A DNA stretch of 64,000 nt from Eledone cirrhosa. Taxonomy: Eukaryota. Position 1 is the stretch's first letter. Each line of letters starts with the position of its first letter. Positions 2,619 to 56,342 of the stretch are shown in pieces. The position numbers and the translations under genes are program-made. Under the pieces are notes generated by a model. That model worked only from the letters and a program-made list of their open reading frames with translations. It had not been told where the DNA came from and made no database searches. The stretch spans positions 375,224,001 through 375,288,000 of the forward strand of contig OZ024743.1 of NCBI GenBank assembly GCA_964016885.1, in the 5' to 3' direction.

Positions 2619-3028
<410 letters not shown>

Positions 3029-3079
3029 TTATATATATGTCTGTCTATCTATCTATCTATATCTATCTATCTATCTATT

Positions 3080-3630
3080 TAACGATAAAGCCGCCTCCCC
3101 TCTTCAAAAACGAAGGAGAGGCGGTGTTTCTGTGCGTAATAGCCATGGCGAAAGAGGTTGTATGGTGGACGCGTCTGAAAGGACTGAGGTCAGACACCTT
3201 TCTCTCTGGCCAACAACTGGTCCGTTTCTTCCGATATCATTTCGGAAGAAGGATCAGGATGGAAAGAGAGGTGCTGCACCCCAGCTGTTTTCATGAAAGA
3301 TGGGTGAAAGTGGCGAGAATGGCCCGTGTGAATGGGCCTTCACTCTACATCAGATTATAGGTGAGGAAGATGAAAGATCAAGGGAGCACCCCCTCTCTGT
3401 GCTCCTGAGGAGAAGGGCTGCACGCTTTTTTCGGGGGGGGGGGGGCGACCCCCCAAGGCGCCTCCTCCCTATTGAGGATTGTGTTATTAAATTAGTTTTT
3501 GTTATATTTTATATATTATTTTTTATATCTTGTTATTGCCTCCTCCTTATTGAGGATGCCTTTTTATGTAAACTCCCTCCATTGTACATGTCCCACTTTT
3601 TGATGCCCTGGTGGCAAATAAAAAGAAAGT
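3080..3630 (+). mobile_element. Tx1/L1-clade non-LTR retrotransposon 3' end, copy 1
   Basis: ORF2 C-terminus (KPPPLFKNEGEAVFLCVIAMAKEVVWWTR...ERWVKV) is nearly identical to copy 2. 3' UTR ends in AATAAA. Flanked by (TCTA)n. Confidence 0.7.
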
Positions 3631-3704
3631 TATCTATTTATATATATCTATCTATCTATTTATATATATCTATATATCTATCTCTCTATCTAACTATATC
3701 TATA

Positions 3705-4575
3705 GAGGGTTGATCCGCAGCAAGTGCGACGACGCGCTCGGTGAAACTCTAGGCGTAGAGGAAATAAACTGGCCAGTCTGTTCGGTAGGACCTTCCGCCC
3801 GGGACCGATGGACAACTTCCAAAAGTCCCTGGCCTGACAGTGCTACTGAGGAGCTCTACCAGTTCGAAGCAAGCTCTACAGACATGGGCGCCCGGGCAGG
3901 GAACCTGCAAAAAAGATCTGTCCGAGGTGCGTGCGTAACGAAGAAACCGTCGCGCACGAATTCATACACTGCCCGGGCGTCACTGACCTGTGGGGCTATG
4001 TAGAACGACTATTGTCGATGGTGGGACCAATCCGGTTGACCACCGAGTCCATTGTCATGATCAAACCGCCACCCTCCTTCAAAAACGAAGGAGAGGCGGT
4101 TTTCCTTTGTGTGATAGCTATGGCGAAAGAGGTTGTATGGTGGACAAGGTTGAAAGGGCTGAGGTCAGACACCTTTCTCTCCGGCCAACAACTGATTTTT
4201 TTTTTCAAATACCACTTTGGAAGAAGAATCAGGATGGAGAGAGAGATTCTGTACCCCAGCAAGTTTTATGAAAGGTGGGTGAAAGTGGCGAGAATGGCTC
4301 GAGTGAATAGGCCTTCTCTCTATATCAGCCTGTAGGTTGAGGAAAAGGAGGAGGAGAGGAAAGGAGTACAAACTCTTCGTACTCCTGGAGATGAGGGTTG
4401 CGCATTTTTTCGGGGGTATGTGTTACCCATATGAACTGTCTCCCTCTATTGGGGAAAATCGACTAATTTTTTTAATTGCATTTGTGATAACATTTTACAT
4501 GTTTTTATTCTATGTAAATTTCCCCCTTTGTATTTGTCCCCTTCTTTTGTGCCCCTGTGGCTAATAAAGAAACAT
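3705..4575 (+). mobile_element. Tx1/L1-clade non-LTR retrotransposon 3' end, copy 2 (frameshifted)
   Basis: CCHC knuckle CPRC..NEETVAHEFIHC..LW, typical of the L1/Tx1 ORF2 C-terminus. Ends with AATAAA then (TCTA)n. Confidence 0.75.
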
Positions 4576-6652: not shown

Positions 6653-7076
6653 TGTGTGTGAAACAAGTGAAACTAGGTATTGAAGCAGATATTGTTATAT
6701 TTTGGGAGAGACATGCTACCAATATAACTGATACACGTGTTTTTATAGGCAATACGACTCTTCCAATGAGAGAGAGTGGTGGGAGCAGAGAGAGGGAGAG
6801 AGAGGCATATAGAAAGAGAAGCATGCACAGAGAGCGAGTGAGAGTGAGAGAGAGAGAGAAGTGCAGAGAGCGCGACGCATCTATGATTGAAGAAGAGCCC
6901 TATCGCATGTTGTAGCATTCGGGAAGTATTTTGACTATAACTTTGAGTCAAGCCAATTCTCCATCTGATAACAATTCCCTACCAGATAAGGATAAATAAA
7001 TAAATAAGTAAATAAGTGTTGATATTCTCTCTCTTTCACTCATTGCCCTCGTCTCTCTTGTACTCCCCATCTCTCA

Positions 7077-7260
7077 TTGGCAGTATCGGTAGAGAGTCGG
7101 ACACCATGCTTTGAAGCATAGAGTTACGTCCCTTTATGATCTGAGTTCAAATCCCGCCGAGGTTAACTTTGCCTTTCATCCTTACGGGGTCGATAAAATA
7201 AAGTACCAGTAATGTACTGGGTATTTGCTGGCCTTGTGCCTAAAATAGAAACAATTATTA
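7077..7260 (+). mobile_element. tRNA-derived SINE (abundant family S1)
   Basis: TGGCAGTATCGGTAGAG, B box GAGTTCAAATCCC, central TTTGCCTTTCATCCTTACGGGGTCGATAAAAT and tail GGCCTTGTGCC...AGAAACAATTATT. More than 10 copies in the window. Confidence 0.9.
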
Positions 7261-7261
7261 T

Positions 7262-7525
7262 ATGCAAATAGGGGCCCACGCGCTGGCTGCCCCGACGGAC
7301 AGAATAGAGAAGGCGTTTCCCCAGAGTATGGTGAGGGAAACGCATTGAAAGAGCAATTCCAGCTCACGAGGCTCTACACCTGCGGGTAGCCATCTCTGCG
7401 CCGATGGTGGCAGTAGAGAGGCGGTCTTAGGGCCAAGGATACCGATATTTGCAAAGTTTACACTCCTCGGCCCGAAACGCAGCAGAGCCTGGATTAGTCG
7501 CTGACTGCAACAGGTTGCCGAAATC
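7262..7525 (-). mobile_element. CRE-like non-LTR retrotransposon 3' fragment (RLE C-terminus)
   Basis: Minus translation gives NLLQSATNPGSAAFRAEECKLCKY and GILGPKTASLL...PRELELLFQCVSLTILWGNAFSIL, resembling the CRE-clade C-terminus (QR.S.AIQRGNA). Homologous to 38453-38635. Confidence 0.65.
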
Positions 7526-10285: not shown

Positions 10286-10589
10286 GTGTGTGTGTGTCTC
10301 TGTATGTAAGTATGTATACATATGTAGAGAAAGGTACAGAAAGAGAGGTTGGGAACAAACAATCGATATCGTAATACAGCTTTTCAAAGTTAATTTACGT
10401 TCGATCTGTTTCAAATAACCGATCATGTATTCTGTTTTCTATGAATATTTGATATTTCACATTTGGCTTCCATTCATGTATGTGACTGGAGAATTACTGG
10501 TGGTAGGTCATGGTTGGGTAGCTAGGGAGGTGGGTGGGGAGGTAGGTGGGTAGGTAGATGGGTGGGTAGGTAGGGAGGGAGGTGGGGCG

Positions 10590-13115
10590 GGATACCTAGT
10601 ACATCGTGGTAGGTAGGTAGACATGGAAGTAAGGAGGGGGAGGGAGTTTGGTAGGTAGGTGGGTAGGTAGGTAGGGAGGTATACCTAGTATATCGTGGTA
10701 GGTAGGTGGGTAGGGAGGTATACCTAGTATATCGTGGTAGGTAGGTGGGTAGGGAGGTAGGTAGATATAGAGGTAGGTAGATATACCTAGTATGTTGTGG
10801 TAGGGAGGGAGGTAGGTATACCTAGTATATCGTGGTAGGGAGGGAGGTAGGTATACCTAGTATATCGTGGTAGGGAGGGAGGTAGGTATACCTAGTATGT
10901 CGTGGTAGGGAGGGAGGTAGGTATACCTAGTATGTCGTGGTAGGGAGGGAGGTAGGTATACCTAGTATATCGTGGTAGGGAGGGAGGTAGGTATACCTAG
11001 TATATCGTGGTAGGGAGGGAGGCAGGTATACCTAGTATGTCGTGGTAGGTAAGTAGGTAGGTATACCTAGTATGTCGTGGTAGGGAGGGAGGTAGGTATA
11101 CCTAGTATGTCGTGGTAGGGAGGGAGGTAGGTATACCTAGTATATCGTGGTAGGGAGGGAGGTAGGTATACCTAGTATGTCGTGGTAGGGAGGGAGGCAG
11201 GTATACCTAGTATATCGTTGTAGATAGGGAGGTAGGTATACCTAGTATATCGTGGTAGGGAGGGAGGTAGGTATACGTAGTATGTCGTGGTAGGGAGGGA
11301 GGTAGGTATACCTAGTATATCGTGGTAGGGAGGGAGGTAGGTATACCTAGTATATCGTGGTAGGGAGGGAGGTAGGTATACCTAGTATATCGTGGTAGGG
11401 AGGGAGGTAGGTATACCTAGTATGTCGTGGTAGGGAGGGAGGCAGGTATACCTAGTATGTCGTGGTAGGTAGGTGGGTAGGGAGGTAGGTAGATATAGAG
11501 GTAGGTAGGTATACCTAGTATATCGTGGTAGGGAGGGAGGTAGGTATACCTAGTATATCGTGGTAGGTAGGGAGCGAGGTAGGTATACCTAGTATATCGT
11601 GGTAGGTAGGGAGGTAGGTATACCTAGTATATCGTGGTAGGTAGGGAGGTAGGTATACCTAGTATATCGTGGTAGGGAGGGAGGTAGGTATACGTAGTAT
11701 GTCGTGGTAGGGAGGGAGGTAGGTATACCTAGTATATCGTGGTAGGGAGGGAGGTAGGTATACGTAGTATGTCGTGGTAGGGAGGGAGGTAGGTATACCT
11801 AGTATATCGTGGTAGGGAGGGAGGGAGGTAGGTATACCTAGTATATCGTGGTAGGTAGGGAGGGAGGTAGGTATACCTAGTATATCGTGGTAGGTAGGGA
11901 GGGAGGTAGGTATACCTAGTATATCGTGGTAGGGAGGGAGGTAGGTATACCTAGTATATCGTGGTAGGTAGGGAGGGAGGTAGGTATACCTAGTATATCG
12001 TGGTAGGGAGGGAGGTAGGTATACCTAGTATATCGTGGTAGGTAGGGAGGGAGGTAGGTATAACTAGTATATCGTGGTAGGTAGGGAGGGAGGTAGGTAT
12101 ACCTAGTATATCGTGGTAGGGAGGGAGGTAGGTATACCTAGTATATCGTGGTAGGGAGGGAGGTAGGTATACCTAGTATATCGTGGTAGGGAGGGGGGTA
12201 GGTATACGTAGTATGTCGTGGTAGGGAGGGAGGTAGGTATACCTAGTATATCGTGGTAGGGAGGGAGGTAGGTATACCTAGTATATCGTGGTAGGGAGGG
12301 AGGTAGGTATACCTAGTATGTCGTGGTAGGGAGGGAGGTAGGTATACCTAGTATATCGTGGTAGGGAGGGAGGTAGGTATACCTAGTATATCGTGGTAGG
12401 GAGGGAGGTAGGTATACGTAGTATATCGTGGTAGGGAGGGAGGTAGGTATACCTAGTATATCGTGGTAGGTAGGGAGGTAGGTATACCTAGTATATCGTG
12501 GTAGGTAGGGAGGTAGGTATACCTAGTATATCGTGGTAGGTAGGGAGGTAGGTATACCTAGTATATCGTGGTAGGGAGGGAGGTAGGTATACCTAGTATA
12601 TCGTGGTAGGGAGGGAGGTAGGTATACCTAGTATATCGTGGTAGGGAGGGAGGTAGGTATACCTAGTATATCGTGGTAGGGAGGGAGGTAGGTATACCTA
12701 GTATGTCGTGGTAGGGAGGGAGGTAGGTATACCTAGTATGTCGTGGTAGGTAGGGAGGTAGGTATACCTAGTATGTCGTGGTAGGGAGGGAGGTAGGTAT
12801 ACCTAGTATGTCGTGGTAGGTAGGGAGGGAGGTAGGTATACCTAGTATATCGTGGTAGGGAGGGAGGTAGGTATACCTAGTATATCGTGGTAGGGAGGGA
12901 GGTAGGTATACCTAGTATGTCGTGGTAGGGAGGGAGGTAGGTATACCTAGTATGTCGTGGTAGGTAGGGAGGTAGGTATACCTAGTATGTCGTGGTAGGG
13001 AGGGAGGTAGGTATACCTAGTATGTCGTGGTAGGTAGGGAGGGAGGTAGGTATACCTAGTATGTCGTGGTAGGGAGGGAGGTAGGTATACCTAGTATGTC
13101 GTGGTAGGTAGGTAT
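10590..13115 (+). repeat. 35-bp G-rich minisatellite (roughly 70 copies)
   Basis: Unit TAGGGAGGGAGGTAGGTATACCTAGTATATCGTGG, with 39-bp variants carrying an extra TAGG. Confidence 0.95.
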
Positions 13116-17707: not shown

Positions 17708-18440
17708 CTCTAAAACTTTTATTTATACATATTCTAAGTAATATAGAAGAATAAAAGAAATAACAAATTACTTAAAGATAACAAATTAATACTAACTTGA
17801 AGGTATACTACTGGAAAAAACCGAGATAGAGGAAATGGCTAATGTAATAATATAATAATAATACAAATGTAATAGAATAGAATAAATAAATGGCTAAATG
17901 TGATGGAGTAGTTATAATAAATTGTAATCAAATACGAGTAGAAGTGATCAGAATAGGGATGTAAGCATATAATGATATTAATATTACTAAAAAATATATA
18001 GATAAATCTACATTGGTATAAATTAGTTACTAGGTTTAAAGTAATGAAAAGAATGGTGATTGATATGTTGACAAGTGGAAAAAATCTCAGATCTCCTATT
18101 TAAAAAAATTAATTTAGAGAAGATAATATGGGATTCAAGAAGGCAATCGTTACAGAAATTATTGCTTTTGCAATCACATTCCAGGTTAGGGTGTAAGGTG
18201 TATTATTACACTTCAGAAATGATACGAAATTTAATAAAGGGGTTGCATGTTTAAGCTTAGAGTTTTTAAAAGTATTCATATTGGGAATTGTACCTCGTCT
18301 TGAAATTATTCGATGTAGAACCGATATAGGTTTTGGAGTTGGTAGAAGTTATGATAGTGCAGGAATAAATAATATTCTTAACAAGGCAGTTTCCATTAAG
18401 AGGGCATACATTATTAGGCCTACAATTACAATTATATATA
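17703..18440 (-). pseudogene. Penelope-like element GIY-YIG fragment plus probable 3' UTR
   Basis: CNCRPNNVCPLNGNCLVKNIIYSC...TYIGSTSNNFKTRYNS, homologous to the C-terminus of ORF 26307-27893. Disrupted downstream. Confidence 0.8.
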
Positions 18441-18847: not shown

Positions 18848-18944
18848 GTCCCGACTGCTGGCAGTTTCGCTTGTGCTGGGTAGGAAACGTGCTAGATCGT
18901 TGCACTTACACCTTCTCCATGAGGCTCAAAGCTTTTCAAGGGAC
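18848..18944 (-). ncRNA. Type I hammerhead ribozyme, U3-A8 core variant (family C)
   Basis: Minus strand reads GTCCC-TTGAAAA-GC(T)TTGAGC...GCACAA-GC-GAAA-CTGCCAGCAG-TC-GGGAC. Confidence 0.75.
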
Positions 18945-19161: not shown

Positions 19162-19196
19162 CTGTATATATATATAGATGTATATATATATATATA

Positions 19197-19512
<316 letters not shown>

Positions 19513-26030: not shown

Positions 26031-26306
26031 AGGGTGATTGAAGGGGGTAGATTGGCAGTATTGGTAAAGAGTCGGACAACATGCAAAGAATCGCTGCTTT
26101 CACCCTTAACGGGATCTTCTGAAATTAAAAAAAAATCAATCTGTGAACGCAGAAGTAAATATTTCGAAAAACGTTACACGCACTATATATATATATATAT
26201 GTAGGAGGTGAGTTTTATTGTAGTACAATAAAGCAATGCAGATATCGGATAAGAAGCACTCTACAGTTTGTAGGACTGGAGTATACATAATATATAAGAT
26301 CAAAAG

Positions 26307-28042
26307 ATGGTTAAAAGAGTTCGTTCTAATTGCTCTTCTTTGAACTTAAATTTATGGTTTGGTACTTCTGAAGTAATTGGCTGGTTCAACAAATTGAATA
26401 ATAAAAACAAACTAAAATTTGTTCAATTTGATATTGCCAGCTACTATTCTTCTATTTCGCCTTCACTTCTCAACAATGCTCTATCTTTCGCATTTAAATA
26501 TTCTGACATCACCACAGATGAACTTCACATCATTCTCACCGCACGTAAAACCATCCTTGAGTTCAACAATGAATATTGGACCAGAGCTGATACCTCTAAC
26601 AACTTCGACATCACAATGGGAGCATCTGATTCATCCCAATTGACAGATTTAATTGGTATCTTTATTTTGAACTCTTTGAGTCGGAAAATTCCTCAATTTC
26701 GCGGTGGAATTTATCGTAATGATGGACTCTTTACTATCTTAAATTGCAACATAGTTAACCTCAATATTATTAAGAACAATATACGTAATCTCTTTAACCA
26801 ACATAACCTAAAAATTGAATTTGATAACAGCATCAAACTAGCTAATTTCTTGGATGTATCTCTTAATCTTGACACTGGCCTATATTACCCTTACCATAAA
26901 AACAATGAGAACCTAAATTATGTTAATTTTAAATCTAACCACCCTACTAATATTAAGAATGCTATAGTTAGTAATATTGGAAAAAGAATATCTAACTTAT
27001 CTTCTAATAAAAATATCTTTGATGCTAACGCTAATTACTATAATAACGCACTTTCTAAAGCGGGCTATCCTGATAAAATCAAATATAGTAAAGAAACAAA
27101 TTCTAGAAAATCTTACAGTAGAATAATTAATCATGATCATTCCAATAACTTTAATAAAAGACCTAGATACAAAAACATAATCTGGTATAATGCTCCTTTC
27201 TCCATCTCTATTAATAATAATATTCCTAAATTATTCTTTAGTGCCTTAAATAAATGCTTCCCTCTCTCACATATCTATAGTAAAATATTTAACAAATACA
27301 CTATAAAATTTTCCTATTCGACATCCTCCAACATTTCCAACATTATCTCTAAATACAACAATAAAATACTAAATACTAAATCTCTTCCTTCCAACACTGA
27401 ATATCATAATAATAGTAATAGTACTCCCGATGTCATTGTAAACTCTAGGCTAATTTCTGCAAACCCAAATACAACGTCAAACACAACTTCGCTAAATGTT
27501 CTTAATCCCATTCTAAATCAAGAAACTATTATTCCTATCGCAAATAACTTCTCCAATCCAATTCCTTCTATAGATAACACTAGGTCACTCGTTAATAATC
27601 TCTCTAATCGCAATTGCAATTGCCCTGCTAAAAATAAATGTCCTCTCAACAACCATTGTCTTGATAAAAACTTAATCTACGAATGTAAAGTTATAACTGA
27701 CACCAATTCCTTCACCTATTTTGGCTCCACTTCCACCTCCTTTAAAGCTCGTCTTTATAATCATCATTCGTCTTTTAAATACCAACTTAAAAGAACCAAC
27801 ACGGCTCTCTCAAAACTCATATGGTCCTTGAAAGACAAAAATATTAAATATAACATCTCTTGGAAAAAGGTTTCTTCTGCTTCTCTATCTTGAACAGTTC
27901 TCTATCCAAGACTTGCAATCTCTGTCTAAATGAAAAATTTACCATTATATCTAATTTAGATTCTATAATAAATAGACGCACTGACTTGTTTTCTCTCTGC
28001 TTGCATAAATTCCACAGAACATTCCATAAAGTATACAGCTAA
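26307..28042 (+). pseudogene. PLE reverse transcriptase / GIY-YIG endonuclease ORF (truncated, frameshifted)
   Basis: FDIASYYSSI, MGASDSSQL, IYRNDGL (YRDD motif changed to YRND), FLDVSL, YVNFKSNHP, CNCPAKNKCPLNNHC, LIY..YFGST..R..H. After a frameshift at about 27890: CNLCLNEK...CLH. Confidence 0.9.
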
Positions 28043-28953
28043 TATCCTAAACTTTATCAATTCAGAATCCTTTTCTCAAAGGCACACATATATATATATA
28101 TACTTCTTTAAAAATATACCCACCTTTCTACCTTATTTCAAAGTTATTTATTATACATTATATAATACTTGTTACTCATTCTATATCACTCCTATTTATC
28201 ACTTCCCTTTCTTCCTTTTTCTTTTCTTTTCTTTTCTTTTCTTTTTCTTTTAATTTCTAACCCCTAATCTGTACCTTTTCTCACTGTGCCTAACATAGAA
28301 ACAATTATTACACAATACAATATATTCTTACTTTATATCACCTTGAAAAAATCCTTCGTAAACATAAACATTTTTTTTTGACGTTGATTATTCATCCTCT
28401 ATTCATTATTTTTTTCTCACTTTCATCTAACTTATTCATGCTCATCTCACAATATATCCTTACTTACATTACTTTTGTTTTTTTTAATAATACATATCAA
28501 CATTTTCTTTCCATCGCACATATTATTAAACCCTTAAATATTATTCTTAATACATATTAACATTTTCTTTTCATCGCACATATTATTAAACCCTTCAATA
28601 TACAAACCTTAACTTTACATTATTTTTCTCTTCGTTAATTTTCAAATTCTTTTAATTTATACATTATCTTCCAACGGTTTTTCAACCTCTCTATGTAAAA
28701 CAATATATCTTTCTCAGTTATAAAAGCTATCTCTCTCTATCACCCATCTCTCCTCCTATCTCATCCTTCCTCATTATACTCCTCCCCCTCCACTTTTTAC
28801 TCTCATCTCCTCCTCTTTTTCATCCTTTCCAACCCCCCCCCCCTCAAACATTTTTTTTACCCAATATCACACATCAATCTAAAACTACTTTTCATATGTT
28901 GATTTAAAACTGCACTATCCACAAGTGTTTTTAACCTTCATATCATGTCTTCC

Positions 28954-29024
28954 TATTTTATCTGATGAAAACACAAATGTTATTGCATGATGATATTTGT
29001 TTTTGAAATGCGCATAATAAAATA
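28954..29024 (+). ncRNA. Minimal type I hammerhead ribozyme (PLE 3' end)
   Basis: TATTTTAT-CTGATGA-AAA(C)ACAAATGTTATT gcat GATGATATTTGT(T)TTT-GAAA-TGCGCA-TA-ATAAAATA. Intact core, 8-bp stem I, palindromic stem III. Confidence 0.9.
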
Positions 29025-29054
29025 CATGGAACTCTTTTAACCATCTTTTGATCT

Positions 29055-29132
<78 letters not shown>

Positions 29133-34499: not shown

Positions 34500-35693
34500 G
34501 TTAGTCATCATGATGGTATGTTAGTCGTCATGATGGTATGTTAGTCGTCATGATGGTATGTTAGACGTCATGATGGTATGTTAGTCGTCATGATGGTATG
34601 TTAGTCGTCATGATGGTATGTTAGTCGTCATGATGGTATGTTAGTCATCAAGATGGTATGTTAGTCATCATGATGGTATGTTAGTCATCATGATGGTATG
34701 TTAGTCATCAAGATGGTATGTTAGTCATCATGATGGTATCTAGTCGTCATGATGGTATGTTAGTCGTCATGATGGTATGTTAGTCATCATGATCGTATGT
34801 TAGTCGTCATGATGGTATGTTAGTCGTCATGATGGTATGTTAGTCATCATGATGGTATGTTAGTCGTCAAGATGGTATTTAATCATCTTGATGGTATGTT
34901 AGTCGTCAAGATGGTATTTAATCATCTTGATGGTATGTTAGTCGTCAAGATGGTATTTAATCATCTTGATGGTATGTTAGTCGTCATGATGGTATGTTAG
35001 TCGTCATGATGGTATGTTAGTCGTCATGATGGTATGTTAGTCATCATAATGGTATGTTAGTCGTCATGATGGCATGTTAGTCATCATGATGGTATGTTAG
35101 TCATCATGATGGTATGCTATCGTCAAGATGGTATGTTAGTCGTCAAGATGGTATGTTAGTCATCATGATGGTATGTTAGTCATCATGATGGTATGTTAGT
35201 CATCATGATGGTATGTTAGTTGTTACGATGATATTTAGTCGTCATGGTGGTATGTTAGTCATCATGATGGTATTTGGTCAACATGATGGTATGTTAGTCA
35301 TCATGATGGTATTTAGTCATCATGATGGTATGTTAGTCATCATGATGGTATTTAGTCAACATGATGGTATGTTAGTCATCACGATGGTATGTTAGTCGTC
35401 CAGATGGTATGTTAGTCATCACGATGGTATGTTAGTCGTCAAGATGGTATGTTAGTCATCATGATGCTATCTAGTCGTCAAGATGGTATGTTAGTCATCC
35501 CGATGGTATCTAGTCGTCATGATAGTATGTTAGTCATCATGATAGTATGTTAGTCGTCAAGATGACATCTAGTCGTCATGATGGTATGTTAGTCATCATG
35601 ATGGTATCTAGTCGTCATGATAGTATGTTAGTCATCATGGTGGTATGTTAGTCGTCAAAATGGTATGTTAGTCATCACGATGGTATGTTAGTC
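34500..35693 (+). repeat. 20-bp minisatellite (roughly 60 copies)
   Basis: Unit TTAGTC(G/A)TCATGATGGTATG, with 19-bp variants. Confidence 0.95.
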
Positions 35694-36746: not shown

Positions 36747-37049
36747 AAAGAATAGAGGTGTAACACACAAGTTATTATATATTGTTAAACGGAATAGAAA
36801 ATGCTGACAAATTGTTCACAGTTGAAAAATGGTTTAATTAGGAATAAAAGAGTATTAGTAAAAATCAATTTTTTACATTCACATGACCTCTACCGACCAA
36901 TCAAAATTGTTTTGACCACAAGAATTTTTGCAACACCAAAGTGTAAATCAGACAAAGTTGGAATTCCTTTTATTAATATAATCTTTTATACACAATCATA
37001 CACACCCGTGTATATTTATTTATATATATATCTATATATATATATATAT

Positions 37050-37173
37050 AGGAAAATGTTTGACCACGACAGCAGAGCTCAATCCGTTTCGACAGCTATT
37101 TCTGAACTCCAGTATTACCCACTCTACTACCCTAAGTATTGAGTACTCTGGTTCCTTACCACACCTCCTTCGT
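37050..37173. mobile_element. Family A element, short copy
   Basis: GGAAAATGTTTGACCACGAC..CCGTTTCGAC plus inverted tail ending CCTTCGTT(AT)n. Confidence 0.7.
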
Positions 37174-37339
37174 TATATATATATATATATATACTTTAAA
37201 TTTTAGATAAAGAAGATTGAAACCCTACCTCCAATCTATACATACATAACGCATGCAAAGATACACCACTATTACCCACACAGCCACCTACAGACCTACA
37301 CAACAAACACCGGACAACAGAGGCCACGTACCGTTCCTC

Positions 37340-37597
37340 TCCGAGAGATACCCCTCTCCCCCCCGCCGCCGGAACCCCCCCCCCCCACAGTTGATGTATG
37401 CGAATCCGAAATTTAGCGACATTTAAATCTCTCCCAAGGTAACTCTATTTCGTGTTATTATTTTTATTCTTTACGTTCTTTCCTACGTTCCTCTACACAC
37501 TACATCCCATTCTACACTTCCTTACATCTCTCTCTTCACCACCGGATTCTGTTACCCGGAGATTTACCCATCTGCATTGTTGAGGCTTCCAAAACGA

Positions 37598-37600
<3 letters not shown>
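37340..37600 (+). mobile_element. Family B element, single arm
   Basis: Reverse-complement homologue of 8700-8950, ending AAAACGACC(AT)n. Confidence 0.75.
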
Positions 37601-37660
<60 letters not shown>

Positions 37661-37662
<2 letters not shown>

Positions 37663-37880
37663 GGAAAATGTTCAAGACCCCGACGGGAGAGCACAAGCCG
37701 TTTCAACGGCTATTTCTGGACGCAGACGGCTATTTCTGGCGTCCAGAAATAGCCATAGAATCGGCTTGAGCTCTGCCATCGGGGTCTTGAACATTTTCCT
37801 ATTACCCACTCTACTATCCTAAGTATTGGGTACTCTGGTGCGTTATGGTCCATCGGGTTCCTTACCACACTTCCTTCGTT
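37661..37880. mobile_element. Family A element with inverted arms
   Basis: 37661-37720 is inverted against 37741-37801; tail runs to CCTTCGTT. Confidence 0.8.
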
Positions 37881-37905
37881 ATATATATATATGTGTGTAT
37901 GTATG

Positions 37906-37936
<31 letters not shown>

Positions 37937-38452
37937 GTATGTATGTATGTATGTATGTATGTATGTATGTATGTATGTATGGACGCATGGATGGATGGGT
38001 AGACGGGTGGTTTTGGTTGTATGGATTCGTAGGGTTACCGTAGTGACATACAGTGTGCCTTTGGCATGTTAAACCTGGCGGAGCTCATCTCTTCTACAGG
38101 TTTGGACACATTTGATTTCTTCTAGAGAGAGAGGTAGAGAGAGAGTGTGTGTGAGTGAAAGAGAGCGAGAAAGGTGGAGAGAGAGTGATCGAGAGGAAGC
38201 GAGAAAGAATCAGCCCCAGTACTGGGCTGGTACATTTTACCTCAAGTATCAGGTAAACTAAAAGGAAAGATTTGCATATAAACAACACGCGCGCGTGTAT
38301 GTGTGTGTGCGTGTGTGTGCATCTATATATACACTGAAACAAAAAATTCCTAACAAAGAATCAAACATAAAAGAATCATAAACATAAAAGAATCAAATTC
38401 CCATTGTCACTGCCTCCGTCTCTCCTGCTCTCATAATCTCTCACTATATTAA

Positions 38453-41858: not shown

Positions 41859-41914
41859 ACTGCCTGATGAGGTCATAGCCATTCAATGGCTATCATCGAA
41901 ATATATATAGCAGT
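41859..41914 (+). ncRNA. Minimal type I hammerhead ribozyme
   Basis: ACTGC-CTGATGA-GGT(C)ATAGCCAT tca ATGGCTAT(C)ATC-GAAA-TATATA-TA-GCAGT, followed by AAATAAA. Intact core. Confidence 0.9.
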
Positions 41915-42846: not shown

Positions 42847-42939
42847 CACACACAAATAAAGATGTATATATGTATATATATATATAAACGATATATATAT
42901 AAATATTTATATACATATATACATACATACATCACATCA

Positions 42940-43695
42940 CATCACACCTTGAGGGATTTCTCTATGCAATACAGGAACAAGAACTCCCTACCAAATATAT
43001 GCTGCACAAAAGAGGAGGGCCATCAGCTGACAATAAATGTAGGCTATGTAAAACAAAGATCGAGGATGTAAGCCACATTGTTGCCAGCTGCGAAAGAATG
43101 TCATCTCGCTACTACCTCCCCATGAGACACGATGGGATAGCTAGAACCATCTGGAACGCACTTCGGAAAACAAAATTAACAACAAACGAGGAAGAATATA
43201 TTGAGACAGATGGCACTAAGGAATACTGGTGGAACCTGAAAATAAAAACTGCCACCAAATTAAAGCACAACCGGCCTGATATTGTTGTTTGGGACCACAC
43301 ATTGAAAACGTGTTCTGTTGTGGAGATCAGCTGCCCACTTGATGTAAACGTTGTCATAAAAATACAGAAGAAGGAGGACATCTACGGACCATTGATGAGG
43401 AGTTTACAAATCCAGTATCCAAGATACACCTTTAGCTTCATACCCATCATTATTGGAGCTACGGGTTATATACCAACCCACTTGGACCAAAGTATGACTG
43501 AACTTGGATTTGCGGACAAAGAGCGCAGCTCCCTAATTCATAGTCTACAAATGGCTGCGATAGCTGGCACCTTCAAAATTTGCAAAACATTCTTGCGATT
43601 CAAGGGATGACAATTTCTTTTCTTTTACAACCTTGCCACCGGGAAGGTGGCCGGTCAAAACAATATACTCGAAATTAAGAGAAAGAGATAACATA
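42940..43695 (+). mobile_element. R4/Dong-like non-LTR retrotransposon 3' end (CCHC plus restriction-like endonuclease)
   Basis: ORF 42999-43610: CRLC..EDVSHIVASC, RHD, RPDIVVWD...VEISCP, K...Y, IPIIIGATG. (TACA)n lies near both ends. Confidence 0.85.
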
Positions 43696-47138: not shown

Positions 47139-47180
<42 letters not shown>

Positions 47181-47190
47181 AACCAGTAAG

Positions 47191-47284
47191 ACCCCGACAG
47201 CTGAGCTCAAGCCGTTTCGACGGCTAATTCTGGACTAAATGAAAATTTATCCTGGTATTTAAATAGCCGATCTTCTCAAGGGGT
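47191..47284 (-). ncRNA. Type I hammerhead ribozyme, U3-A8 variant
   Basis: ACCCC-TTGAGAA-GA(T)CGGCTA...TAGCCG-TC-GAAA-CGGCT tgagctc AGCTG-TC-GGGGT. Confidence 0.8.
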
Positions 47285-47599
47285 AATTCCATATATGGTC
47301 AAAGTGATTGTCAAAAATCAGTAGTAATTCTGTGGTTGCAAATTAGTAGGGGAGATGGTGGCTAAACCTGCCAGTAGGAGAAAGAGGGGAGGAGGTGGAG
47401 TAGACCCAATCAAGCGTTGGTAGTGCCAGCTACAGCTGGGCATGAGGTCAAAGAAGATACAGGGGAGGGGGTGGGGGAGGAAGTCGGAACGGTAGGTAGA
47501 ACAATGGAGGGTAGAAATAGGAAAGAAAAAATACTGAGAGTGAAGAAAAGCAAATACTGAGAGTGATTTTTGACAATCACTTTGACCATATATGGAATT

Positions 47600-47693
47600 A
47601 CCCCTTGAGAAGATCGGCTATTTAAATACCAGGATAAATTTTCATTTAGTCCAGAATTACCCGTCGAAACGGCTTGAGCTCAGCTGTCGGGGT
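47600..47693 (+). ncRNA. Type I hammerhead ribozyme, U3-A8 variant
   Basis: Stem I 47600-04/47689-93, core TTGAGAA 47605-11, GAAA 47666-69, predicted cleavage after C47688. One mismatch in stem II. Confidence 0.8.
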
Positions 47694-47818
47694 CTTACTG
47701 GTTCCTATTACCCACTCTACTACCTCAAGTATTGAGTACTTTGGTGCGTTATGGTCCACCTGGTTCCTTACCACATTTCCTTCGTTATATATATATATAT
47801 ATATATACATATTTCCAA

Positions 47819-52229: not shown

Positions 52230-55200
52230 TCTATATATATAAAACGGTAGATGTCTGTATGTGTGTGTGTATGATTTGTATGTATTTCCACATTTCTCTA
52301 CCGATTTTGATGAATTTGTTTCCAATGTGCTCCAAATTTACCAGGGCAGGTCAACACGTAATTATTTTTGCCAAAAATGTCCTGCTTCTATGAAAATAAA
52401 ATCGATACAACTAAATACATGCTGTAACCCTCTCTCTTACACGCTTCATTCCTCTCACTACTACCATCAAAAATATATGAAACTACATACATGTTGCAAC
52501 TCTCTTTAAAAGGTTCATATTTTCCTCTACTCCACTCTCAATCTCCTCTGCAACTCTCTTTAAAAGGTTCATCACTCTCTCTACTCCCCCCTCTATCCCC
52601 TCCGTCTACTACCCTATCAACATTACAATTTAGAACGACAAAACTTCTTTTGAAGGAACGCGACACAAACTTTGAAACCTAAGCAACACAACAACCATAG
52701 CTTTACTCTCTCCGTCGCTCTTCCCTCTCTCTACAATAGATTATTCCCCCTCTCTACAGTCATAACGATACTCATACATCAAATATCAAAATTTAAAAAG
52801 CCGATAACACTAAATACATACTGCTCTCTCAACGTTACATTTTACATCAAATAACAAATATTCAAAAGCAACAGATGAATTTATAAAACAACAAACGTAA
52901 CGATAACGACCTCTCTATAATTTAACTGCTTTGCTCTCGCTGTCGCTCTTCACTCCCTATATGACAACACTCCAGAGAAAGAAACAATGTAAATAACAAC
53001 CCGCAAAATAACACTTCATATAACAGATTAATGCTATAGACCTATGAATCGGAATGTAACCCGTGAACCTTTTCCTGGGCAAAATTATTCGAACAGACAT
53101 GACCTCATTGCCAGAGTGTTCAGGCTGAAACTGGCTAAACGCGTGGCTTTAATCAAAAAGGTCAGGTATTTGGGGCTGTAAAATGGGACATGTTCACCGT
53201 CGAATGGCAAAAACGAGGGCTGCCATATGCTCACATTTTGATTTGGTTAGCTGATAAAATCAATTCAAATGCCATAGACAGCTTCATTTCGGCTGAAATC
53301 CCTAACCTAGCAACTGACCAGGAATTACATGCCATCGTCAAAGCTAACATGGTCCGTGTGCGTCGGGTCCTAATGAGCATCACACGTGTCTGAAATGGGG
53401 TTCGTGCAGTAAGGGATACCAAAAAAAATTTGTTGACGAGAATCAGACTGGTGGCAATGGGTACCCCCTGTACAGGTGGAGACGGCCCGAGAACGGTCGC
53501 TTCACCACAACAGTAAAGGGAGGTCAAGTCGACAATAGATTAGTGGTACCTTACTGCCCGCTTCTCTTGAAGATGTTCAACGCCCACATCAACGTTGAGT
53601 TTTGCAACTCCGTCAGGTCTATAAAATACATATGCAAATATGTAAATAAGGGCTCTGATGAGGTCACAGAATACCTGGCGGGGCGGTACATCAGTAGCAA
53701 TGAAGCTTTTTGGCGCCTATTTGGTTTCCCCCTACACCAATGGCACCCCGCCATCGTACAGCTTGCGGTACATTTGGAAAATGGGCAAAGGGTTTACTTT
53801 ACGGACCAAACCGCGGCCAAGCTGGCCGCCGATCCGAAAAAGACCACTCTGACAGGTTTCTTCAAACTTTGCCAGTTCGATACATTTGCGCAAACAATTG
53901 TGTACCCCCAGGTTCCATCCGACTTTATATGGTCGAAAAACACTTGGGTGCTAAGAAAGTCAGGTCAGGCTGTTGAAAGACATCCTGGTGTAAAATTTGA
54001 CAGCTGTCTTGGAAGGGTTTACACTGTGCCCCCAAGTCAGCATGAGTGCTTTCATCTTCACCTTCTTCTGCATGAAGTTGTAGGCCCACAAAGTTTTCAG
54101 GACCTCAAAACTGTTGATGGAGAAATATGTGATACGTACCGGGAAGCCTGCTTTAAGCGTGGTCTTTTGGAAGATGAATCGCAATGGGATTCCACTTTAG
54201 CAGAGGGTGCTTTGTTGAAATCACTTAAAGGTCTACGGGAACTCTTTGCCATTTTGCTTCAAAAGTGTGAATTGGGTGATCCCAAATCTTTATGGGTCAA
54301 GTACAGAGACTTCATGTCTGAGGATTTCCTGCGCCTGGCTCATCTGCAGTATCCTTCAGTGGAAGTTGCTTACAGCGGCATTATCTACAACAGGGCACTC
54401 ATTGATATCGAGGACGCCCTCCCCGACATGGCTGGGAGTGAGTTGGCGACGTATGGCTTGCCGTCAACCGTCACAGATGAAGCTAACACGTTGGCCCCGG
54501 ATTTGTTGCGGGAAACAGCATATGACATCGAATCTCTTTCCCAATACTTAGAGGAAAATGGGCCCAAGCGTCTGTCGGACCAAAGGTTGGCCTATTTAAC
54601 TATCATTGACGCGGTTCAAAATCAGACTGGGGGTATTTACTTTCTCGATGCTCCTGGGGGTACCGGAAAAAACTTTTGTAACAAAATTGATTCCCGCTAA
54701 GATTCGTCAGGAGAAAAAAATTGCGTTGGCCGTTGCATCGTCCGGGATCGCTGCTACTTTGCTGCCGAGAGGCAGGACAGCACTTCAACCTTTAAACTCC
54801 CCTTGGATTTAGTAAAAACTGAGACACCAACATGCAATATCAGCAAGAGCTCACACGAAGCTCTGATTCTCAAAAAATGTTGCCTCATTGTTTGGGATTA
54901 GTGCACAATGGCACACAAGGGTGCCCTTGAGGCATTGGACAGTACCCTGAAAGACATTAGGGATTCTACGGCTCCTATGGGTGGCGTAACCCTTCTGCTA
55001 TCAGGGGATTTTCGGCAAACGCTGCCTGTCATCCCCAAAGGGACAAGAGCTGATGAAGTGCTTGCCTGCCTTAAGTTGTCCACGTTGTAGCCCCAGGTGA
55101 AGACTTTGTACCTGAGCACAAAGTGATAATATGTCTGCAGCATTTGCTCAGAACATTTTAGCACTTGGTGAGGGCAAGGTCCCTGCAGATGACAAGGGCG

Positions 55201-55980
55201 GCATAGCAATTGACTCCCTGTGCAACAGTGTGAGCAGCCCTTCTGACCTTTGGGAGGCAGTTTTTCCTAATGTATCATCTAACTTTAAATACTTAGATTG
55301 GCTCAGCGAAAGAGCCATCCTTGCTCCGAAAAATGCCATGGTTAATTTTATTAACGAGCAGCTGATTGAGAAAATTCCCGGTAAAGAACACATCTTCAAA
55401 TCTATCGACCGGACGTCAGACCCCGACGATATCGTTAATTATCCGGTTGAGTTATTAAATTCCCTTGAGCCTCCGGTGCTCCCACCTCACATTCTTAAGC
55501 TTAGGGTTGGCTGTCTCATTATGCTAATAAGGAACTTGCGCCCACCAAAGCAGTGCAACGGTACTCGCATGGTCATCAAGTCAATGTCGCCCCCACTTGA
55601 TTGAGACAACCATTGTAACGGGGTGCGGGAGAGGGGAGAATGTTTTCATTCCAAGGATGAACCTTTTCCCCTCGGCGTCAGCTATCCCGTTCGATTTCCG
55701 GCGATCCAAATTCCCGATGAGACCATGTTTTGCCATATCCATTAACAAGTCGCAAGGGCAAACATTGTCGGTGGTGGGCATCCATTTGGGGGAGCCATGC
55801 TTCTCCCATGGTCAACTTTATGTTGCCTGTTCCCACGTAGGGAGCAGGAATGCACTTTTTGCTTACACTCCTCAAGGATGACACGCAATATCGTCTACAA
55901 AGAGGTGCTATAGATGTTGGTGCAGGTGTTGGAGGTGTTGGAGCTATGCCGTCTGGAAAACTATTTCCTGCGGTATAGGT
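52230..55980 (+). mobile_element. Helitron, decayed autonomous copy
   Basis: 5' TCTATATATATAAAACGGTAGATGTCTGT terminus followed by the Rep-helicase region. 3' end not identified. Confidence 0.75.
53050..55913 (+). pseudogene. Helitron RepHel (HUH Rep plus Pif1 helicase), multiply frameshifted
   Basis: RHDLIARVFRLK, VEWQKRGLPYAHILIW, IKYICKYVNKG, FLDAPGGTGK, IVWD*CTMAHK, GDFRQTLPV, ILAPKN, CNGTR, INKSQGQTL, SHGQLYVACS. Confidence 0.95.
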
Positions 55981-56342
55981 GCAACAAAAGGGGTCTTAGT
56001 AGAAGTAGCATAGACGTGAGTTTTACGGTGTCAATAACACGGCAACGTACACAGGGCCGGATTTGCGCGTGATGAAAGCACTATGCGTCAATAGGGCGCC
56101 GACAAAAATTTTAAGCTCCTCCTCATTTCCTCAATCACCCGAAAATGGTCCTGCTTAAAAGTAAGTGTTGTGTCCTCTGTTAAATAAACCAAATTTTTAA
56201 CGAAATATCATACGCTACATACGATGTTTAAATAGCGTTTATATTGAAAATGTAAATGGCATGTAATGCCCAAATTTAATTCGTAAATTTCCTCGAGTTT
56301 TAGGGATTTACACAGAGAGACATCCTCTGTTTTATATATATA

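Follow-up and report, generated by a model that had tools for sequence, protein, structure and literature searches.

Hammerhead motifs with a U3-A8 pair in Penelope and retrozyme-like repeats of Eledone cirrhosa

Introduction

Hammerhead ribozymes carrying U3 and A8 are known from earlier work. Perreault et al. 2011 (PMC3088659) described the U3-A8 pair as a natural covariation and the U3/A8 form as active in vitro, and Cervera and de la Pena 2014 (PMC4209133) recorded it in hammerheads of Penelope elements (PLEs) of Schistosoma, with ~1,300 hits. The 2'-OH of residue 8 (G8) is the general acid of the reaction and is placed by the 3-8 pair (PMC11300833). Base-paired contacts between stems I and II speed hammerheads (PMC3088659), and a palindromic stem III is taken as a sign of cutting by dimers (PMC4209133). 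What the motif does for PLEs was called unclear by Craig et al. (PMC8557442); in an anole PLE hammerhead, single mutations at position 3 or 8 abolished cutting and left insertion in vitro unaffected (PMC11167929).

We analyzed U3-A8 hammerhead motifs in a 64,000-nucleotide stretch of the E. cirrhosa genome (the window) and their relatives elsewhere in the genome. The original prediction regarded U3-A8 as a conserved class; the pair had already been published for Penelope-element hammerheads, so it does not make a new class. The pair itself being known, the interesting part is the comparative series around the motifs.

Results

Hammerhead Motifs in the Window

Re-reading of the window placed five motifs at the positions and on the strands first proposed for them:

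47600..47693, + strand: type I hammerhead of family A, with U3 at 47605, A8, a long stem II, and a near-palindromic stem III; predicted cut after C47688
47191..47284, - strand: hammerhead of family A inside an inverted arm, with a U3-A8 core
2824..2918, - strand: hammerhead of an older subfamily of family A, with U·U at 10.2-11.2
18848..18944, - strand: hammerhead in an old, truncated copy of family B, with the 5' strand of the pseudoknot mutated; predicted cut at 18853
63432..63519, - strand: hammerhead of family C, with a perfectly palindromic stem III; predicted cut after 63437

In each of the five, UUGA(U/G/A)AA is accompanied by a stem I of five Watson-Crick pairs, by GAAA, by a stem III that can pair, and by GUC; the three predicted cut positions had been placed correctly. 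A strict descriptor gave five matches in the window, and not one of 200 first-order Markov simulations produced a match. The five copies have the core and the 3-8 pair of a type I hammerhead, with three covarying helices and helix I open, and their stem II region spans 54-65 nt. Their description as type I hammerheads of (TA)n-inserting retroelements was supported. U3-A8 cannot be called the rule among TA-resident elements here, however, because the window also holds canonical CUGANGA hammerheads (C3 at 28962 and 41864 on the + strand and at 58304 on the - strand).

The motifs do fall into three families (A at 2824, 47191, and 47600; B; and C), although they are not five independent cases: positions 47176-47320 are 99% identical to 47564-47708, so that the 47191 and 47600 motifs are the two arms of one inverted insertion, and only four insertions are represented. 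Nor did the opening of stem II proposed as common to all, two base pairs and one bulged pyrimidine, hold up, as the bulge is needed solely in the C lineage. In family A the second stem II position is A, C, or U facing a fixed U and is mismatched in most subfamilies, and in most copies of family B five pairs follow one another without a break (GCUUG/CAAGC). A bulged pyrimidine that follows two pairs in every member and is restricted to U3-A8 was thus not found. Stem II of the 47600 copy is interrupted by a C·C mismatch. Across the five motifs, the predicted probability of the G10.1-C11.1 pair was 0.08-0.66, indicating weak closure of stem II, and for stem III of the 63432 motif the predicted pair probability was 0.08 as a monomer.

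A G-to-C change in stem II, at 47664 in the window, recurs in long-tailed family A copies of different subfamilies. This recurrence is probably an effect of query choice, copies obtained by protein search being mostly without the change.

Family A and Its Penelope Element

The family A motif is the hammerhead in the pLTR of a Hydra-like Penelope element that is young and intact, and the insertion near 47 kb consists of two arms:

47564..47787, + strand: direct arm of a 5'-truncated family A insertion, with the pLTR end, the hammerhead, a ~100-nt tail, and then (TA)n
47176..47556, - strand: the other, inverted arm of this insertion, which carries the 47191-47284 hammerhead and ends in (TA)n ~20 nt past the predicted cut

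An inverted, 5'-truncated copy is the usual arrangement of PLEs (PMC8557442), and family A shows the pLTR, the inverted truncated copy, and the (TA)n target. Two end motifs lie ~20 nt and ~100 nt past the predicted cut; 21 of 69 and 34 of 44 occurrences, respectively, run into TA repeats at that point, and the others continue within the element.

GIY-YIG coding pieces were present ~1.2 kb upstream on the same strand in several of the 30 loci listed for the 47600 region. With a 197-residue C-terminal query of family A we obtained 69,668 first-pass candidates, and all 150 that were scored were 98-100% identical. Among 12 loci picked from the protein matches for their long frames, every one had a sense-strand hammerhead match on both sides of the frame. 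The frame has 786-819 codons and covers RT and GIY-YIG, the hammerheads are ~3.55 kb apart and occur once per unit, and a further inverted copy is often present. At one locus (L105), a single frame of 788 codons from stop to stop contains RT and has GIY-YIG at its C-terminal end. Compared with the motif definitions given for Hydra-clade PLEs (PMC8557442), the protein has DKT, CxCX5C, and a late CxxC and CxH, CCHH is absent, and RWR (residue 104) stands in the place of RWK. A Pfam search with partial family A frames returned no match, and it is this motif set that suggests a Hydra-like assignment.

Further stubs of family A or its older sister, truncated or head to head, lie at 738-981, 19184-19437, 37011-37980, and 57014-57257; these are without the 5' half of the hammerhead.

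Families B and C and Their Sisters

Family C is represented in the window by one element:

63356..64000, - strand: family C element, one full 591-nt non-coding unit and part of the next

The element runs past the window as a partial tandem with an inverted copy, flanked by (TA)n, and partial tandems, often with an inverted truncated copy, were seen across the 30 loci listed. The family is very young, all 40 scored genome matches being 99-100% identical. Unit ends led into TA repeats in 30 of 77 cases and into the next unit in 47. As in retrozymes, the repeat is a non-coding tandem with a type I hammerhead in each unit; we file it as retrozyme-like because its 591-nt unit exceeds the ~170-400 nt of retrozymes. 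Single 620-nt contigs in runs X1 and X5 loop back over 591 nt; this is the picture expected from a collapsed DNA tandem, and they were therefore not counted as family C circles.

Family B is old, with copies 75-85% alike over the full query, and U3 and A8 are present in all 27 distinct copies; identity is 0.93 in the core vs. 0.82 elsewhere. It is homologous over hundreds of bases to B2, which has U3-A8, and to G and E, which both have C3-G8; the identity of B2 with G is 80% over 522 nt. Family C is homologous to family D (65% over 302 nt). BLAST among A, B, and C gave no convincing similarity. The families had been called unrelated, which stands at the BLAST level for A against B and C, but B and C have in common the predicted pseudoknot and an upstream motif. 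The latter, UGACC followed after 5-7 nt by a CACGUG-like sequence, is found in B, B2, G, E, D, and C.

Among the frames near related loci, no parent frame for B or C was found. Candidate frames for the B/C/E/G group beside L171/L189, L151/L190, and L176/L191 belonged to other elements or could not be linked, and a GIY-YIG fragment at 18026-18430, considered as a partner of family B, comes after the B copy and an intervening TA/CA run, and has the appearance of an independent insertion. We infer that B and C are non-autonomous, retrozyme-like repeats that borrow a Penelope protein.

Structure Conservation and a Predicted Pseudoknot

Structural conservation was studied in 18 hand-picked family representatives. 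Among their 264 cells, 92.4% were paired, in comparison with 35-50% in slid controls, and none of 500 shuffles was as high, a result that is not a probability since the rows are related. Both sides change in 11 of the 15 pairs. Positions G5, A6, G12, A13, A14, and U16.1 are invariant and N7 varies; the 3-8 pair is C-G in eight representatives, U-A in eight, U·G in one, and C·A in one. Stem III is a perfect palindrome in 13 of the 18.

Outside family A, five bases of the 5' flank (6-7 nt before position 3) match the internal loop of stem II (6-10 nt after A9). The central GAG/CUC (GAG/CTC in the DNA) is paired in 14 of 16 non-A rows. Its inner flanking pair occurs in all four Watson-Crick forms (G-C 6, U-A 4, C-G 2, and A-U 1), and the outer one is U-A in nine rows, U·G in four, and C-G in two. 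In family C the predicted contact is as follows:

63494..63526, - strand: predicted pseudoknot of family C, 5' flank 63522-63526 (UGAGG) with stem II loop 63494-63498 (CCUCG)

On average the match has 4.8 Watson-Crick pairs, vs. 2.0 ± 0.24 in 2,000 shuffles of the flank. When strands were swapped among six lineages, 4 of 720 permutations were as high, a weaker test than the shuffle because GAG/CUC is common to the lineages. In 40 further B2/G copies, scored at a fixed register with the loop strand fixed by the search pattern and the flank free, 180 of 200 cells were paired and 30 of the 40 rows fully so, as against none of the 40 at three control registers. These patterns suggest that stem II is long, stem III palindromic, and the pseudoknot covarying in B, C, and their canonical-core sisters alike.

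One candidate pseudoknot of family A was rejected: the arm (ACCAG) would pair with the 3' tail, and the arm is fixed while the tail varies. A second, a 5' contact GAAU/AUUC, found no support, since stem II of the older sister family takes up these same letters and old A subfamilies pair weakly there.

Changes at the 3-8 Pair

We counted the states of the 3-8 pair across the genome with one pattern in which only positions 3 and 8 were altered, the counts of exact matches being lower bounds. U3-A8 gave 13,984 matches (209 in the reversed control), C3·A8 1,749 (control, 37), C3-G8 681 (reversed control, 25), and U3·G8 187 (control, 75). Families A and C make up most of the U3-A8 total. The long-arm architecture is found with both the U3-A8 and the C3-G8 core, and U3-A8 also occurs in short-stem families. 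Short-stem II motifs with U3-A8 at L112:941 (+), L079:445 (-), L102:7468 (+), and L102:7349 (-) are separate lineages, and the one at L022:2719 (+) is a C3-G8 sister of one such family.

That CUGANGA searches would miss U3-A8 motifs was borne out, and Rfam misses them as well, with none reaching the gathering score in two loci (L105 and L031). For the window, the 150 of 323 Rfam matches that were listed contained no hammerhead family and were mostly microRNA models on simple repeats.

Between the sister families B2 (U3-A8) and G (C3-G8), the proposed compensatory C3U/G8A change is evident. All 90 exact matches of this lineage, counted by hand, comprise U-A 43, C-G 25, U·G 21, and C·A 1. We inferred a tree from 40 of these matches and 11 earlier loci with positions 3 and 8 masked, three B loci having been dropped for pattern mismatch. 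The tree contains a C-G clade that includes the outgroup E (21 rows, two of them not C-G) and a U-A clade that includes family B (8 rows), both 100/99, and between them a grade in which 15 rows have U·G and 7 have U-A. On this tree seven changes are required for the U·G label, and three branches are long. The topology fits a B lineage that moved from C-G through U·G to U-A, with the grade mixed.

Family A departs from this picture. Its older sister has U3-A8 in ~72 of the 79 rows listed, and a side branch has U3·G8 in 16 of 100 listed (hand counts). One diagnostic subfamily of family A has 615 exact matches, and C3·A8 was present in 93 of the 100 listed, indicating that a source element with a mismatched core kept spreading; the 3-8 base pair is thus missing from this subfamily, and the expectation of a conserved pair did not survive. 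A tree of 72 family A copies places a clade of 41 U3-A8 rows (and one unscored) within a C3·A8 grade. The autonomous family A spread with the C3·A8 mismatch before regaining U3 in its youngest clade. Its amplification with C3·A8, along with the U3·G8 side branch, means that cutting may not be needed there.

In a further family (J; L202:2972 (-) and 3498 (+)), all copies seen appear to have U3·G8, and the whole family is perhaps at the wobble state.

Neighboring Features

A second Hydra-like element served as comparator:

26298..29060, + strand: 5'-truncated Hydra-like PLE of another family, with a 531-aa frame containing CxCX5C and GIY-YIG; 38% identical to the family A protein

It has a canonical CUGAUGA hammerhead at its 3' end (C3 at 28962), with A-U as the 10.1-11.1 pair. 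Canonical hammerheads of minimal type, with palindromic UAUAUA or UAUGUA as stem III, lie at 41859-41914 (+) and near 58304 (-), and each belongs to a multicopy family. A hammerhead-like fold with a fixed U4A (CAGAAGA) was seen at ~20 loci, including 26121 (-) and 52155 (+) in the window and L189:3678 (-) and 7244 (+); it bounds a further Hydra-like element (51% protein identity to family A) and is possibly another inactive core that spread.

The window also contains 3' fragments of non-LTR retrotransposons at 2980-4335 (+) and 42903-43610 (+), with longer RT frames of the former kind just left of the window (L032). A dispersed ~185-bp repeat, probably a SINE, occurs at 7076-7263 and about ten other places, and two minisatellite arrays occupy 10523-13112 and 34500-35693. 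Broken frames at 53231-55995 (+) are, judging by their translated motifs, what we take to be a Helitron-like Rep/helicase.

Discussion

We consider it likely that the motifs are type I U3-A8 hammerhead folds in the terminal repeats of PLEs, predicted to yield unit-length RNAs and to act probably as dimers. Tandem transcripts would be cut to unit length, presumably by such dimers, and B and C would use a Penelope protein in trans. The predicted cut does not set the 3' end, because the integrated ends lie 20-105 nt beyond it. If the 2'-OH of residue 8 does the chemistry and U3 positions the residue, A8 would be tolerated. In B, C, and their sisters, the usual loop-loop contact may be replaced by the predicted pseudoknot, whose five pairs would join the 5' flank of stem I to the internal loop of stem II. 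Cutting would then be under firmer selection in the non-autonomous families, which passed from C-G through U·G to U-A, than in the autonomous family A, which tolerated C·A.

The main rival to the cutting model holds that the motifs persist by inheritance while their catalysis is dispensable or lost, the fold being kept for some other role, e.g., as a protein binding site near the start of reverse transcription, and the 3-8 pair drifting. The spread of family A with C·A and U·G is what this explanation expects, as is the U4A core of another abundant Hydra-like family. Published work points the same way, in that insertion in vitro still took place with mutated PLE hammerheads and none of the reads stopped at the cut site (PMC11167929), and minimal PLE hammerheads cut poorly (PMC4209133). 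Drift is hard to reconcile, however, with the non-autonomous B2/G lineage, where C·A accounts for 1 of 90 matches while the three pairing states are common, with the six core positions that stay invariant in the 18 representatives around a variable N7, or with the return of U3 in the youngest clade of family A. On balance we regard a non-catalytic role as unlikely.

Far less probable is that U3-A8 marks one distinct conserved ribozyme class, common to unrelated elements by descent or transfer. Under the pattern used it outnumbers every other state (13,984 vs. 681 for C3-G8), and it prevails in the older sister of family A, but the counts are driven by two young families, the same architecture comes with C3-G8 in E, F, G, H, and I, the short-stem U3-A8 families have C3-G8 sisters, the proposed bulge is not shared, and the variant is known from Schistosoma PLEs (PMC4209133). 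Least probable of all, in our judgment, is a reading of GAG/CUC as a local switch, in which the monomer is kept off by pairing of the 5' GAG with stem I's 5' strand. A short GAG-loop-CUC hairpin between the 5' flank and that strand is indeed possible in C, G, B2, H, and F; families E and I are without the hairpin although their flank still matches the loop of stem II, and covariation of the flanking pair with that loop extends to all four forms.

A broader proposal can be made tentatively, though we hold it somewhat more doubtful than not: that an undescribed long-arm, pseudoknotted, dimer-forming type I subclass exists in ~10 retrozyme-like families and that both routes across the 3-8 pair are preserved, with cutting-dependent non-autonomous repeats going from C-G to U-A via an active U·G and an autonomous Penelope lineage reaching >1,700 copies with a crippled C·A. 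If true, nature would thereby supply in vivo evidence that retrozymes cannot do without cutting and that the Penelope elements bearing the motif can. Because variants in all four 3-8 states occur naturally here, with copy numbers and an order of descent for each, the spread of dead ribozymes becomes testable. At least 14,000 motifs in one animal genome are missed by CUGANGA descriptors and Rfam, and the analysis points to a predicted pseudoknotted form of the hammerhead in animal repeats. In the literature covered, we found no cephalopod survey, long-arm pseudoknotted form, U·G grade, or amplified C·A, and a search on hammerhead ribozymes with U3A8 as a term returned nothing.

Among described systems, the Hydra-clade PLEs (Craig et al. 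2021, PMC8557442) match family A in the C-terminal GIY-YIG without CCHH, the CxCX5C linker, DKT, the (TA)n target, the inverted truncated copies, and a hammerhead near the 3' end. Family A differs in its length (3.55 kb vs. <3 kb) and in RWR vs. RWK, and every hammerhead listed in file S2 of that paper has a CUGA core and a short stem II, unlike family A. Pseudoknot-stabilized hammerheads and natural U3/A8 cores were both reported by Perreault et al. 2011 (PMC3088659), who left highly repetitive type I motifs out of part of their analysis; a contact of the 5' flank with the internal loop of stem II in an animal repeat was not found in the accessible part of that paper.

The hammerheads of Schistosoma Cercyon and other PLEs (PMC4209133) are alike in being type I and present in both pLTRs and in having a long helix II, a 4-5-bp helix I, a palindromic helix III region, the U3-A8 covariation, and opposite-strand pairs 100-700 bp apart. 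As described there, those motifs are minimal and nearly or entirely lack helix III, which here has 2-5 bp; the stem II region here is 40-65 nt, and the predicted pseudoknot of B and C is a further difference. Families C and B2 resemble the animal non-LTR retrozymes of Cervera and de la Pena 2020 (PMC7229834) and equally those of Li et al. 2026 (bioRxiv 10.64898/2026.07.22.740005), all being non-coding tandem units with one type I hammerhead each and a likely dependence on PLEs. Unlike those retrozymes, with units of 170-400 nt, the repeats studied here have units of 591 nt (C) and ~720 nt (B2), are mostly partial tandems with an inverted copy, and carry the U3-A8 core.
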